A stretch of DNA of 64,000 nt from Escherichia coli (GTDB lineage Bacteria; Pseudomonadota; Gammaproteobacteria; Enterobacterales; Enterobacteriaceae). The stretch is taken from assembly GCF_001677475.2 (NCBI RefSeq), contig NZ_CP015229.1. One strand, given 5' to 3'. Within the stretch, counting starts at the first letter, position 1. Each line of letters starts with the position of its first letter. Both the position numbers and the translations under genes were made by a program. Below, one piece after another: positions 13,761-17,045 of this stretch. The notes beneath the pieces were generated by a model. The model was not told where the DNA came from. It worked only from the letters and a program-made list of their open reading frames with translations, and made no database searches.

Positions 13761-14747
13761 ATGGGTCAACTGATTGACGGCGTCTGGCATGACACCTGGT
13801 ACGATACCAAATCTACCGGCGGTAAATTTCAACGTTCAGCTTCCGCATTTCGTAACTGGCTCACTGCCGATGGCGCTCCTGGCCCCACTGGCACAGGCGG
13901 TTTTATCGCTGAGAAAGATCGTTATCATCTCTATGTTTCACTCGCCTGCCCGTGGGCACACCGCACGCTGATCATGCGTAAACTCAAAGGACTGGAACCG
14001 TTTATTTCCGTTTCCGTAGTGAACCCGCTGATGCTGGAAAACGGCTGGACCTTTGATGACAGTTTTCCGGGAGCAACCGGAGACACGCTCTATCAACATG
14101 AATTTTTGTATCAGCTTTATCTCCACGCCGATCCACACTACAGCGGACGAGTTACTGTTCCCGTGCTGTGGGACAAAAAGAACCACACCATCGTCAGCAA
14201 CGAATCAGCAGAAATCATCCGCATGTTCAATACCGCGTTTGATGCGCTGGGCGCGAAAGCGGGTGATTACTACCCTCCAGCCCTGCAAACAAAAATTGAC
14301 GAACTTAACGGCTGGATTTATGACGCCGTTAACAACGGCGTGTATAAAGCTGGTTTTGCCACCAGCCAGGAAGCTTACGACGAGGCGGTGGCGAAAGTGT
14401 TTGAATCGCTGGCGCGACTGGAGCAGATTTTAGGCCAGCATCGTTACCTGACCGGCAATCAGCTAACCGAAGCCGATATTCGCCTGTGGACTACGCTGGT
14501 CCGTTTTGATCCAGTGTATGTGACCCACTTCAAGTGTGATAAGCACCGCATCAGCGATTACCTGAATCTGTATGGCTTCCTGCGCGATATCTACCAGATG
14601 CCGGGAATTGCCGAAACAGTCAATTTCGATCATATCCGTAATCATTACTTCCGCAGCCATAAGACCATCAACCCTACGGGGATTATTTCAATTGGTCCGT
14701 GGCAGGATCTCGATGAACCGCATGGACGAGATGTTCGCTTCGGTTAA
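13761..14747 (+). CDS. yqjG: Glutathionyl-hydroquinone reductase YqjG (Xi-class GST), 328 aa
   Basis: ORF 13740..14747; start at MGQLIDGVWHDTWYDTKSTGGKFQR; CPWAHR active-site motif present. Confidence 0.92.
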   Translation: MGQLIDGVWHDTWYDTKSTGGKFQRSASAFRNWLTADGAPGPTGTGGFIAEKDRYHLYVSLACPWAHRTLIMRKLKGLEPFISVSVVNPLMLENGWTFDDSFPGATGDTLYQHEFLYQLYLHADPHYSGRVTVPVLWDKKNHTIVSNESAEIIRMFNTAFDALGAKAGDYYPPALQTKIDELNGWIYDAVNNGVYKAGFATSQEAYDEAVAKVFESLARLEQILGQHRYLTGNQLTEADIRLWTTLVRFDPVYVTHFKCDKHRISDYLNLYGFLRDIYQMPGIAETVNFDHIRNHYFRSHKTINPTGIISIGPWQDLDEPHGRDVRFG

Positions 14748-14750
14748 AAA

Positions 14751-14778
14751 AGGCACCTTACGAGGTGCCTCTGATTAT
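14751..14778 (+). terminator. Intrinsic terminator after yqjG
   Basis: Perfect 8 bp stem aggcacct/aggtgcct with tacg loop, then T-rich tract. Confidence 0.55.
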
Positions 14779-14794
14779 TAGCTAAGTGCATGTT

Positions 14795-14889
14795 GGATGC
14801 GGCGTGAACGCCTTATTCAACCCACAAAACTTTTTATATTCAATATGTTGCAAGGACAGCGTAAGCCAGATAAGCGTAGTGCATCTGGC
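14795..14889. repeat. REP-like palindromic units
   Basis: gatgcggcgtgaacgccttattcaa and gccagataagcgtagtgcatctggc resemble E. coli REP consensus. Confidence 0.55.
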
Positions 14890-15030
14890 AATTTTGCACT
14901 TGTCATCAGTTTTAGCGCGCCTTCAAAGCACCTTATTAATTCATTGAACGAATATTTACTGCCATTTCATTCACGTCTATTCTTAATTTGCTGCTTTAAA
15001 AACAAGTGATTGAGCAAAATTGAGGCGAAA

Positions 15031-15396
15031 ATGGACTGGTATCTGAAAGTACTAAAAAATTATGTCGGTTTCCGGGGTCGTGCGCGGCGCAAAGAGTACT
15101 GGATGTTTATTCTGGTCAACATCATCTTCACGTTCGTGCTGGGGCTACTGGATAAAATGTTAGGCTGGCAACGCGCAGGTGGCGAAGGCATCCTGACGAC
15201 AATCTACGGTATTCTGGTGTTTTTACCGTGGTGGGCGGTTCAGTTCCGCCGCCTGCACGACACCGACCGCTCGGCGTGGTGGGCACTGCTATTCTTAATC
15301 CCGTTTATCGGCTGGCTTATTATCATCGTCTTTAACTGCCAGGCGGGTACGCCAGGCGAAAACCGCTTTGGACCAGATCCAAAACTGGAACCTTAA
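15031..15396 (+). CDS. yhaH: DUF805 inner membrane protein YhaH, 121 aa
   Basis: MDWYLKVLKNYVGFRGRARRKEYWMF... Confidence 0.88.
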   Translation: MDWYLKVLKNYVGFRGRARRKEYWMFILVNIIFTFVLGLLDKMLGWQRAGGEGILTTIYGILVFLPWWAVQFRRLHDTDRSAWWALLFLIPFIGWLIIIVFNCQAGTPGENRFGPDPKLEP

Positions 15397-15409
15397 AACA
15401 AATCTGCTC

Positions 15410-15437
15410 GCCGGATGTCTGACTCATCCGGCTTTTA
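15410..15437 (+). terminator. Intrinsic terminator after yhaH
   Basis: gccggatg...catccggc hairpin followed by tttt. Confidence 0.75.
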
Positions 15438-15637
15438 TCATTATGTTGATGAATGAATAATTTACTAATGTTTATTTAAAATATTTCAATGTCGTTATAT
15501 AAATTACCTATAAAAAATAACCATGTATTTATCTTAAATATCAAAACCTTTATAACATCCGAAAAAGAAAGATACGAATAGCATTTACACAATACCCGGA
15601 ATAGACTTTCGTCACTTTTAATTAAAGGGATGTTTTT

Positions 15638-15994
15638 ATGCAGTGGTATTTATCCGTATTAAAAAATTATGTTGGTTTCTCTGGTCGCGCACGTCGTAAA
15701 GAGTACTGGATGTTTACTCTGATTAACGCCATCGTCGGCGCTATTATCAATGTCATTCAATTGATTTTAGGTTTAGAGTTTCCATTCCTTTCTCTCATTT
15801 ACCTGGCAGCAACAATCATTCCGATCATTGCTCTGTGCGTTCGTCGTCTGCACGATACTGACCGTTCAGGTGCGTGGGCGCTTCTCTATCTGGTACCGAT
15901 CATTGGCTGGTTAGTTCTGTTTGTATTTGCCTGTTTAGAAGGCAATTCTGGCAGCAATCGTTACGGAAACGATCCGAAGTTTGGTTCAAATTAA
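15638..15994 (+). CDS. yhaI: DUF805 inner membrane protein YhaI, 118 aa (paralog of yhaH)
   Basis: MQWYLSVLKNYVGFSGRARRKEYWMF...; same fold signature as YhaH but in an AT-rich context. Confidence 0.88.
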   Translation: MQWYLSVLKNYVGFSGRARRKEYWMFTLINAIVGAIINVIQLILGLEFPFLSLIYLAATIIPIIALCVRRLHDTDRSGAWALLYLVPIIGWLVLFVFACLEGNSGSNRYGNDPKFGSN

Positions 15995-16004
15995 TCTTAG
16001 AATT

Positions 16005-16027
16005 GGGGCGATATTTCGCCCCTTTTT
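16005..16027. terminator. Bidirectional intrinsic terminator between yhaI and yhaJ
   Basis: ggggcgatatttcgcccc hairpin flanked by A/T runs. Confidence 0.75.
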
Positions 16028-16044
16028 ATTAACAATAACAAATA

Positions 16045-16941
16045 TTATTTTCCGCTAAAAAGTTTGGGAATTTCCCGCAGACACCAGGATTTCGCTTCCC
16101 CCATACTGTCACGACGCCAGGCCATAATAATATCGATCTCGCTGGTCGATTCCGGGCTGACGACACGCAACCGCCCTTCCGCAATATCTTTTTCGACCAT
16201 CGGATACGGCATCGTCGCCACGCCAAGCCCCGCCAGTAATGCCTGACGTTTATCTTCAATCGTGCTCACCGTTAAGCGCGGCTGTTTGTCCAGCAGCTGT
16301 ACGGTCAACACCGGGCGCTCACGCGCGGTATCCGCTACCGCAATTCCACGATATTTCACGCGCGTCACTTCAGATAACGGTTCCGGCTCCTGATGAATCG
16401 GGTGATCAGGCGCGGCAACGTAGACGTTCATTAAGGTATAGAGCTTTCGCGAGTTGATCTCCGACGAGGAACGAAAATGCATATCCGGCGCGATAACGAT
16501 ATCCGCCCGCCCCTGCTCCAGTCGTTCCCACGCCCCCGCCAGCACTTCGGTGATGATTGCCAGTTGGGTATTGGCTTTTGCCGCCAGTTTGTCAATTAAC
16601 GGGAAAAAGGCAGGTGTCGGTACCAGCGCTTCGGTCACAATGGTGAGATGCGTTTCCCAACCGCGTGCGAGAGCTTCCGCATCGGTAGTCAGTTTATCTG
16701 CGGCTTCCAGCAAAACGCGCCCTCGCTCCAGCAACATCCTCCCGACATTGGTGAATTTGGTGCGATGGCCCGAGCGGTCAAACAGCACCACATCCAGCTC
16801 TTCTTCCAGTTTTTGCATGGTGTAGCTAAGTGCTGAAGGCACGCGTCCCAGCTCATCCGCCGCCGCCGCAAAACTGCCCCGGCGATCGATCGCATCCATA
16901 ACCCGTAGTGCTTCCAGCGTTAATGCCCTTTCTTTGGCCAT
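16045..16941 (-). CDS. yhaJ: LysR-family transcriptional regulator YhaJ, 298 aa
   Basis: MAKERALTLEALRVMDAIDRRGSFAAAADELGRVPSALSYTMQKLEEEL (HTH); divergent from yhaK. Confidence 0.9.
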   Translation of the reverse strand: MAKERALTLEALRVMDAIDRRGSFAAAADELGRVPSALSYTMQKLEEELDVVLFDRSGHRTKFTNVGRMLLERGRVLLEAADKLTTDAEALARGWETHLTIVTEALVPTPAFFPLIDKLAAKANTQLAIITEVLAGAWERLEQGRADIVIAPDMHFRSSSEINSRKLYTLMNVYVAAPDHPIHQEPEPLSEVTRVKYRGIAVADTARERPVLTVQLLDKQPRLTVSTIEDKRQALLAGLGVATMPYPMVEKDIAEGRLRVVSPESTSEIDIIMAWRRDSMGEAKSWCLREIPKLFSGK

Positions 16942-17045
16942 TTCGTTCTCATTCAGGAAATTTGAACATACCGGGCAGAATATCTGGCTAACAATGTAGC
17001 GTCCAGCCCCTTACCATAAAAGGAAGTAAAGAGAGGTCAAGAATT

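Follow-up and report, generated by a model that had tools for sequence, protein, structure and literature searches.

Tandem DUF805 genes yhaH and yhaI of Escherichia coli: a nearly universal copy and an optional, AT-rich copy with two allelic forms

The window analyzed in this study, a 64-kb stretch of E. coli DNA (64,000 nucleotides), carries two adjacent plus-strand open reading frames at 15031-15396 and 15638-15994, and the ORF list bears out the positions given in the original prediction. RefSeq names the pair yhaH and yhaI/DUF805, flanked by yqjG and yhaJ. Both genes are on record in E. coli under these names, and the finding is largely ordinary. K-12 has yhaH (b3103) and yhaI (b3104) at the same place, in the same order and orientation, with yqjG and yhaJ on either side, but the yqjG-yhaH intergenic repeat region differs. 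As these are two annotated genes of unknown function, their re-description matters little in itself; the published link of YhaH to phages and the published control of yhaI by Ler and Cpx offer a route to the function of the very widespread DUF805 family.

Downstream of yqjG, the terminator scan identified a terminator-like hairpin (14751..14770, plus strand; 8-bp stem with five G-C pairs) that is conserved in the aligned E. coli loci. It is followed by a variable REP-like repeat insert (14771..14919), which shows 85-91% identity and 9-11-bp indels among E. coli strains and is missing from E. marmotae. The REP-derived naRNA4 family of Rfam matched weakly and below threshold at 14788-14822, and no Rfam family scored above threshold in 14000-17000. 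In the K-12 y-ome paper, yhaH was called "surrounded by repeat sites" (PMC11551758). The interval 14920..15030 (plus strand), with a GAGG Shine-Dalgarno sequence 6 nt upstream of the ATG, hardly varies from E. coli to E. marmotae, while the synonymous divergence of yhaH is 0.36; it presumably contains the yhaH promoter and 5' UTR. The consensus scan returned no sigma-70 consensus sites in 14700-16100.

The yhaH gene (15031..15396, plus strand) encodes a 121-aa DUF805 inner-membrane protein and is followed by a REP-like terminator hairpin (15410..15432, plus strand; GCCGGATG...CATCCGGC and then a T-run), in which the terminator scan recognized an 8-bp stem with six G-C pairs plus TTTTATCATT. 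C. rodentium and Intestinirhabdus also have a terminator at this position. The AT-rich spacer (15397..15637, plus strand) is the presumed yhaI promoter region and a likely H-NS-type silencing site. By pattern search it contains a CpxR-box-like sequence on the minus strand (15461..15475, ATAAACATTAGTAAA, one mismatch to GTAAA-N5-GTAAA); the window has nine matches of this kind where 3.6 would be expected, and this box is weak and not statistically convincing. The yhaI gene (15638..15994, plus strand) encodes an accessory, fast-evolving DUF805 inner-membrane protein of 118 aa, in an allele other than that of K-12, and contains a dimorphic cassette at 15773..15945 (plus strand), which spans codons 46-103, namely the loop preceding TM2, TM2, the RRLHDTDRS loop and TM3. 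Between the convergent yhaI and yhaJ lies a hairpin terminator (16005..16022; 7-bp stem with six G-C pairs, plus TTTTTATTAA). The right-hand anchor of the locus is the LysR-type regulator gene yhaJ (16045..16941, minus strand; a 298-aa ORF annotated yhaJ by RefSeq), whose product shares 97% amino-acid identity with that of C. rodentium. Since each gene is followed by a terminator and the yhaI Shine-Dalgarno region is kept across genera, yhaH and yhaI probably form separate transcription units.

Homology between the two proteins extends over the full length (63 of 118 positions identical, 53%; BLASTP E = 1e-44), and the paralogy proposed in the original prediction stands. Their assignment to DUF805 is also secure: both exceed the PF05656 gathering score of 25.7 bits, yhaH with 120.9 bits (E = 4.5e-35) over profile positions 1-111 and yhaI with 109.3 bits (E = 1.8e-31) over positions 1-110 of 111. 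For NCBIfam, the pair gave sub-threshold matches only. The motifs M[DQ]WYL.VLKNYVGF.GRARRKEYWMF and RLHDTDRS were found in both proteins, as had been noted. Among 48 diverse DUF805 sequences, the invariant columns are G16, R17, R20, E22, W24, M25, F26, R69, R70, H72, D73, N107, G110, P113 and K114, and the corresponding family motifs, GRxRRxEYWMF on the N-terminal side of TM1, the RRLHD loop and the C-terminal N..G..PK, are present in both proteins of the window. AlphaFold2 predicts a three-helix membrane bundle (mean pLDDT 90; helices 20-44, 50-73 and 78-99) with an N-terminal amphipathic helix, and a YhaH-GFP fusion was reported to localize to the membrane in a YidC-dependent manner (PMC3225971). 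The older annotation of yhaH and yhaI as "putative cytochrome" was rejected, as no resemblance to a cytochrome, in sequence or in structure, reached significance. No neighbour gene family recurred across 80 distant DUF805 loci, and the only large neighbour "clusters" at such loci turned out to consist of shadow ORFs antisense to the DUF805 gene.

The AT-richness of yhaI and its spacer relative to yhaH was borne out, though yhaI alone is only moderately unusual. The GC content is 51.9% in yhaH (GC3 62.3%) and 42.9% in yhaI (GC3 42.0%), against 50.3% for the window, while the first and second codon positions are nearly alike (46.7% in yhaH and 43.3% in yhaI). Some 13% of the 357-bp windows reach the AT content of yhaI, and among the long ORFs of the window its GC3 ranks at around the 5th-10th percentile. 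The 241-bp spacer has 27.8% GC, a value reached by less than 1% of the 241-bp windows in the 64 kb; its counterpart in C. rodentium is 223 bp long with 29.6% GC. As yhaI-type genes have a GC3 10-19 points below that of the flanking genes in all four genera examined, low GC is a long-standing trait of the yhaI lineage. On these sequence comparisons, the compositional contrast lies almost wholly at synonymous third positions and is a stable feature of that lineage rather than a mark of recent import. AT-richness of this kind, arising here without recent transfer, calls for caution in composition-based island calling.

Comparison with other genera bears on the age of the pair. The two genes share 56% nucleotide identity, and their synonymous difference of 0.79 is saturated. 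A tandem yhaH/yhaI pair adjoins yhaJ in C. rodentium; in Superficieibacter, which has three copies, the pair is syntenic at yhaJ, and Intestinirhabdus carries the yhaI type only, also syntenic. In the tree, the YhaH and YhaI lineages each form a multi-genus clade of their own (bootstrap 100% and 82%, respectively), the latter taking in both E. coli alleles, which are joined at 100%. The saturated synonymous sites, the syntenic pair next to yhaJ in other genera and the separate clades together show an ancient split, and the pair is older than the genus Escherichia. The two clades are not sisters and the deep nodes are without support; therefore, ancient independent acquisition of one copy, instead of tandem duplication, may also have given rise to the pair. 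The original prediction had offered two origins, a duplication with later divergence or a separate arrival of the second gene: its premise of paralogy is upheld by the full-length homology, and its argument from AT-richness is too simple in view of the ancient split and the shared low GC3. Between E. coli and C. rodentium, yhaI shows dN 0.335 and dN/dS 0.21 and yhaH dN 0.090 and dN/dS 0.047, and protein evolution is thus about 3.7 times faster in YhaI. A homologue scan of genome contigs that required exact 8-residue words reached distant taxa only (58% identity or less) and no Escherichia locus, and is thus unfit for one- versus two-copy species counts or for naming nearest relatives.

The distribution of the two genes within E. 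coli differs sharply. Among 5426 complete E. coli genomes, the yhaH region was matched in 5419 and the yhaI region in 4406, yhaI being missing from about 19%. UPEC 536 has a single copy and no yhaI, O104:H4 has IS1 in place of yhaI, and frameshifted forms of yhaI occur on 345 and 190 contigs. Therefore, yhaH is the conserved, nearly universal copy and yhaI the optional one, repeatedly lost, replaced by IS1 or frameshifted. The three states of yhaI (absent, K-12 form and alternative form) may serve as a simple lineage marker and as a natural experiment on the need for the gene.

The new detail provided by this analysis is that E. coli yhaI exists in two forms, set by the sharply bounded 173-bp stretch at 15773-15945. 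The YhaH of the window is 100% identical to the protein of a K-12-like strain, and the neighbouring genes are the same ones. YhaI of the window is 85% identical to K-12 YhaI, and more than 1000 contigs encode precisely this protein. In its spacer, in its opening 45 codons and in its final 15, yhaI is essentially identical to that of K-12, but the window has the alternative 173-bp cassette, and RefSeq (PGAP) gives this allele no name. The cassettes differ at 55 of 173 bp (32%), as against 3 of the other 531 aligned bases, with dS 1.73, dN 0.22 and dN/dS about 0.13. All 18 amino-acid changes between the alleles map to TM2 and TM3 or right next to them (the cassette encodes these two helices out of three), and they are mostly conservative hydrophobic swaps inside the helices. 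The window type is present in 2291 genomes and the K-12 type in 2081, each class being about 98-100% uniform; among these 4372 genomes no further haplotype was found, and mosaic forms are rare. Regulatory divergence between the two genes, the explanation favored below, leaves the cassette unexplained, which counts against it.

The source of the cassette was sought in several places. A diversity-generating hypervariable cassette was rejected on the two haplotype classes among the 4372 genomes and the lack of a nearby reverse transcriptase, and gene conversion from yhaH was rejected on the low identity of both cassettes to that gene (50-55%). No donor closer than the 69% amino-acid identity between the two E. 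coli alleles was found among YhaI orthologues, phages, plasmids or in a search of 5.8 billion proteins, and matches of intermediate identity proved to be frameshifted or chimeric E. coli sequences. With its sharp boundaries, near-identical flanks and two uniform haplotypes, yhaI resembles the mosaic or dimorphic alleles of E. coli core genes that arise from short recombination tracts. It differs from them in that the dS of the tract, 1.73, is of about the same size as the E. coli-Citrobacter distance for yhaI (dS 1.6) and in that no donor was found.

Several findings in the literature concern the expression of the two genes. Ler activates yhaI 36-fold in EHEC, where the gene was described as lying on no recognizable island or mobile element (PMC3891560). 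When CpxR is overexpressed, yhaI goes up 3.2-fold on arrays and 40.3-fold by qPCR, and many CpxR targets in that report have no CpxR box (PMC2731931); the effects of Ler and CpxR on yhaI may be indirect. In Salmonella, YhaH protein climbs toward the stationary phase and is repressed by SdsR, which directly targets yhaH between -43 and +45 (PMC5137417). Taking these data with the composition and distribution described above, we give somewhat better than even credence to the view that yhaH and yhaI are anciently diverged paralogues, of which yhaI is the optional, fast-evolving and probably silenced copy, and that they have diverged mainly in regulation. Through its AT-rich spacer and gene body, yhaI would be subject to H-NS-type silencing and would be switched on only by relief of that silencing or by an activator; Ler (36-fold) and overexpressed CpxR (40-fold by qPCR) are published cases. 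The yhaH gene, by comparison, would be expressed, increased in stationary phase and adjusted by the small RNA SdsR. The codons of yhaI may be held AT-rich by low expression and weak constraint or by selection for silencer binding. In its AT-rich upstream and coding sequence, its dispensability, its patchy distribution among strains and its activation by Ler, yhaI resembles the E. coli genes that are silenced by H-NS and relieved by Ler. Unlike genes under xenogeneic silencing, yhaI is on no recognizable island or mobile element and would have held its chromosomal position since before the genera diverged.

A possible, though clearly less probable, account is that the Escherichia ancestor had lost yhaI and that E. 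coli outside the UPEC 536 lineage took it up again through homologous replacement of the yhaH-yhaJ region from another enterobacterium, the AT-richness and the cassette being traces of foreign DNA. E. marmotae and UPEC 536 share the same single-copy junction, in which yhaH ends in ...LEQE and a distinct hairpin follows, and this junction differs from a simple deletion of the two-copy sequence; it may fit re-acquisition of yhaI in other E. coli equally well as retention. Moreover, the tree puts E. coli YhaI together with Superficieibacter-like sequences (71% bootstrap) and not with Citrobacter, the genus that is closest by yhaJ, yhaK and yqjG, and the cassette dS of 1.7 shows that very divergent sequences coexist at the locus. 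On the other side, yhaI is found at precisely this site in three further genera, the lower GC3 is common to all yhaI orthologues examined, the tree incongruence depends on 118 residues and on 61% versus 64% identity, and the sampling of Escherichia does not extend to E. albertii, E. fergusonii or the cryptic clades. The boundaries of the yhaI segment also count against this account, as they showed no insertion-sequence ends, target-site duplication, direct or inverted repeats; no integrase or transposase ORF lies between yqjG and yhaJ in the window, and IS1 is found at the locus in derived variants of other strains only. A recent island or mobile element carrying yhaI was rejected on the lack of mobility signatures and on the syntenic orthologues in C. 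rodentium, Superficieibacter and Intestinirhabdus.

Inner-membrane host factors are known for the entry of phage genomes, such as ManYZ for lambda, PtsG for HK97 and NfrB for N4. YhaH is likewise an inner-membrane protein whose loss blocks specific phages and whose complementation restores infection, but it is much smaller and is not known to act in transport; the likeness covers YhaH only. Specifically, infection by PhiWec188 and PhiWec190 requires YhaH, and complementation restores sensitivity (10.1101/2024.11.29.626071, PMC12695924). Both YhaH and YhaI would present an invariant arginine-rich face, formed by GRxRRxEYWMF before TM1 and RRLHD between TM2 and TM3, together with the invariant C-terminal N..G..PK tail. 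Speculatively, the two proteins most likely serve as scaffolds or binding partners embedded in the membrane, with a part in envelope or stationary-phase physiology, and some phages may exploit them during entry.

An improbable reading is that DUF805 proteins are inner-membrane entry factors and that phage pressure keeps the presence or absence of yhaI and the two TM2-TM3 forms under balancing selection, with yhaI as a decoy or an alternative entry factor in one variant. The need of two phages for YhaH agrees with it, as do the intermediate frequencies of the three yhaI states (42%, 38% and 19%), the rarity of mosaics and the DUF805 genes carried by phages themselves (PHROG 12855, and an intact unannotated DUF805 ORF in Stx phages 75/02 and POCJ13). 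A still more doubtful extension joins these into one phage-facing module, in which YhaH is the entry factor, the presence or absence of yhaI and its co-adapted cassettes (dS about 1.7) form an old balanced polymorphism, and phage-borne DUF805 mimics exclude superinfecting phages. Against phage pressure, the low dN/dS of the cassette and the conservative swaps look like purifying and not diversifying selection, only two haplotypes exist, and no phage is known to use YhaI. The haplotypes also seem to follow lineage in the named strains. PADLOC defence models searched with YhaH and YhaI gave no family at an E value of 0.1 or below.

Chance or amino-acid content in two short genes is a very unlikely source of the compositional contrast: the genes are indeed short and the overall GC of yhaI is not extreme, but the gap of 20 points at third positions against 3 at first and second positions, the spacer below the 1st percentile and, in contradiction to this explanation, the recurrence of the gap in yhaI orthologues of four genera speak against it. 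It is hardly credible that yhaH was duplicated in tandem only recently, within Escherichia, and that the downstream copy then diverged fast: the genes are adjacent, on the same strand, of one domain and near-identical in their N-terminal and loop motifs, and tandem DUF805 arrays recur elsewhere (Polaribacter, Aquimarina and Hafnia), but the saturated synonymous sites and the syntenic yhaI orthologues of other genera (61-64% identical, closer than YhaH at 53%) refute this, and the separate multi-genus clade of each lineage and the lack of species-specific paralogue similarity suggesting gene conversion oppose it. The 5' ends of yhaH and yhaI do show a lower synonymous divergence (dS about 1). 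Recent gene conversion between the paralogues at this end was considered and rejected, as the shared AAAGAGTACTGGATGTTT is conserved across genera and in both lineages and the similarity is not species-specific.

The tandem, same-strand pair of DUF805 genes described in the original prediction was supported by the agreement of the open reading frames, the RefSeq names and the PF05656 matches. yhaH (15031-15396, plus strand; 121 aa, ATG at 15031) and yhaI (15638-15994, plus strand; 118 aa) are preceded by the Shine-Dalgarno sequences GAGG and AAGGGA, respectively, and RefSeq labels them yhaH and yhaI/DUF805, with yqjG (glutathionyl-hydroquinone reductase) and the convergent yhaJ (LysR-type regulator) as the flanking genes; yhaH and yhaI are already-known genes of an already-known family. 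Pfam PF05656 (DUF805) covers both proteins end to end (E = 4.5e-35 for YhaH and 1.8e-31 for YhaI), the quoted motifs were found in both, and the pairwise protein alignment extends over the full length (53% identity, E = 1e-44), so that paralogy holds.

The reported AT-richness of yhaI and its upstream spacer was also borne out: the GC content is 51.9% in yhaH (GC3 62.3%), 42.9% in yhaI (GC3 42.0%) and 27.8% in the 241-bp spacer (15397-15637). The two genes are only 3 points apart at codon positions 1 and 2, so the contrast lies essentially at synonymous sites. Of the 241-bp windows across the 64-kb window, fewer than 1% equal the spacer in AT-richness; yhaI is a moderate outlier only, with 13% of same-length windows equally AT-rich.

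The observation was thus confirmed, and its interpretation, duplication followed by divergence or independent acquisition of the second copy, was partly supported: the paralogy stands, and the composition reflects neither a recent duplication nor a recent import. In the codon alignment of yhaH and yhaI, the DNA identity is 56%, dN is 0.43 and the synonymous difference of 0.79 is saturated, which argues against a recent duplication; recent gene conversion between the two genes was looked for, and no sign of it was found. The yhaI-type gene has a GC3 of 0.58 in Citrobacter rodentium (flanking genes 0.72), 0.57 in Intestinirhabdus (0.70-0.76), 0.47 in Superficieibacter (0.61-0.66) and 0.42 in this window (0.55-0.62), a deficit of 10-19 points in all four genera, and the C. 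rodentium yhaH-yhaI spacer has 29.6% GC. Since this AT bias outlasts synonymous saturation, it is not a residue of recent import, and low GC is a stable feature of yhaI evolution.

Among the 5.8 billion proteins searched, the nearest YhaI relatives beyond E. coli and Shigella were 119-aa proteins with 60-68% identity; those with species names (61-64%) came from Superficieibacter electus, Intestinirhabdus alba, Citrobacter amalonaticus and C. rodentium, and these relatives from other genera are closer to YhaI than YhaH is (53%). In C. rodentium, yhaH is followed by a 223-bp spacer and by yhaI adjoining yhaJ-yhaK; this site holds three DUF805 genes in Superficieibacter, and in Intestinirhabdus a lone gene of the yhaI type between yqjG and yhaJ. 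In a neighbour-joining tree of DUF805 proteins (200 bootstraps), YhaH (100% support) and YhaI (82%) form separate clades that each include E. coli, Citrobacter and Superficieibacter, which dates the YhaH/YhaI split to before the divergence of these three. The deep nodes are unsupported, and an ancient tandem duplication and an ancient acquisition both fit. Of the two genes, yhaI evolves the faster: in the comparison with C. rodentium, yhaI has a dN of 0.335 (dN/dS 0.21) and yhaH one of 0.090 (dN/dS 0.047). Across Enterobacteriaceae, the yqjG-yhaJ site carries 1 to 3 DUF805 copies; the third gene of S. electus (L090 2619-3056) lies 5' of its yhaH and yhaI orthologues and encodes a highly divergent protein of 145 aa. 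In this species, yqjG is also followed by an inserted Ldh_2-family gene.

A REP-like hairpin followed by a T-run lies 3' of yhaH (15410-15432), and another hairpin lies between yhaI and yhaJ (16005-16022). Other genera carry a terminator at the position equivalent to the post-yhaH hairpin, and the ribosome-binding region of yhaI is conserved in them; on these grounds, yhaI most likely forms a separate transcription unit. Scans found no consensus sigma-70 promoter and no Rfam family at threshold, and a CpxR-box-like sequence (15461-15475) was statistically unconvincing. The AT-rich spacer and yhaI body probably form an H-NS-type silenced unit. Ler is an antagonist of H-NS silencing. In EHEC, yhaI rose 36-fold with Ler, a stronger response than any other gene outside the LEE island showed; the authors stated that yhaI is not on a mobile element (PMC3891560). 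With CpxR overexpressed in K-12, yhaI increased 3.2-fold on arrays and by 40.3-fold in qPCR (PMC2731931). In Salmonella, the small RNA SdsR targets yhaH directly, and the YhaH protein builds up as cells approach stationary phase (PMC5137417). These published data are consistent with a yhaI that is silent but inducible and a yhaH that is expressed.

About 110 bp upstream of yhaH (14920-15030) hardly differ between E. coli and E. marmotae despite a coding synonymous divergence of 0.36, suggesting a strongly constrained yhaH promoter and 5' UTR; the Salmonella SdsR target region maps to this stretch. Between the yqjG terminator and this region, a REP-like repeat insert (14771-14919) differs from one E. 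coli strain to another (85-91% identity, with indels of 9-11 bp) and is missing in E. marmotae; it contains a weak, sub-threshold Rfam naRNA4 match (14788-14822).

The distribution survey found both one- and two-copy arrangements: of 5,426 complete E. coli genomes, 5,419 matched the yhaH region and 4,406 the spacer and yhaI region. UPEC 536 has yhaH only, ending in ...LEQE and followed by a different 26-nt hairpin, TTAAGCACCTTG(T/C)AAAAGGTGCTTAA, directly before yhaJ. This junction is common to UPEC 536 (L003 4100-4200) and E. marmotae (L092 3330-3420), so the single-copy haplotype is either old or exchanged between species. It did not arise by simple deletion from the two-copy sequence. The C. 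freundii complex likewise has yhaH without yhaI, IS1 stands in place of yhaI in E. coli O104:H4 (L004 2500-3350), and frameshifted YhaI forms occur in hundreds of contigs. Absence, IS1 replacement and frameshifts together indicate that yhaI is dispensable. The pattern can be read as retention with repeated loss; loss of yhaI followed by its re-acquisition is the alternative, which we consider possible but rather doubtful.

In the C. freundii complex, an 864-bp stretch without a called gene (L094 2137-3000; 52% GC) separates yqjG from the lone yhaH, where the E. coli intergenic counterpart is 283 bp. In strain S1-SRL-01-C, IS1 lies within the yhaH region, to which RefSeq assigns three DUF805 CDSs. 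For positions 1-25000 of the window, the best match among the 5,426 complete E. coli genomes was only 95.3%, and only 1,897 genomes covered at least 80% of it. As identity reaches 97-100% in the genes near yhaH and yhaI, strong divergence or variability must lie elsewhere in 1-25000; the fimbrial (TcfC-like) cluster that the hits name is a possible site.

Two descriptive points are new, if modest: the three-state polymorphism of yhaI and a sharply bounded cassette within it. Of 58 differences from the K-12 allele across 15397-16100, 55 fall within 173 bp (15773-15945; 32% divergence), with almost identical sequence on each side. Within the cassette, dS is 1.73 and dN 0.22, a divergence close to the E. 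coli-Citrobacter distance for yhaI; with dN/dS this low, diversifying selection is disfavoured. The encoded segment runs from the loop that precedes TM2 through TM2 and the invariant RRLHDTDRS loop to TM3, and most of its 18 amino-acid changes exchange one hydrophobic residue for another inside TM2 and TM3. Searches of the 5,426 genomes with each cassette alone showed 2,291 genomes of the window type and 2,081 of the K-12 type; both classes are near-uniform, and mosaics are few. Comparison with yhaH ruled it out as the origin of either type, and searches of orthologues, phages, plasmids and the protein database turned up no donor. Two readings remain, a short tract imported from an unsampled relative or two old haplotypes with later-homogenised flanks; in the latter, a packed TM2-TM3 pair would resist break-up.

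The AlphaFold2 model is confident (pLDDT 90) and shows three long helices together with an N-terminal helix that is amphipathic. Invariant residues across 48 diverse members lie in GRxRRxEYWMF, RRLHD and the C-terminal N..G..PK, and charge counts under the positive-inside rule suggest a cytoplasmic arginine-rich face and a conserved periplasmic tail. The match behind the old 'putative cytochrome' label is non-significant (E = 0.13), and no recurrent gene neighbour was found across 80 distant DUF805 loci.

The single functional lead for these proteins, a recent one, is a link between YhaH and phages: an E. coli ST345 strain without yhaH is resistant to PhiWec188 and PhiWec190, and yhaH complementation restores sensitivity to both (10.1101/2024.11.29.626071, PMC12695924). 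Phage pressure behind the yhaI polymorphism is conceivable, yet weakly supported and very improbable. Phage DUF805 genes form PHROG 12855, and an intact DUF805 ORF that lacks annotation is present in the Stx phages 75/02 and POCJ13; given the role of YhaH as a phage host factor, this may be of relevance. In Shigella Stx phage 75/02 (L097 2471-2860), this ORF encodes 129 aa, about 40% identical to YhaI, and it lies antisense to the surrounding nin-region genes in a moron-like manner.
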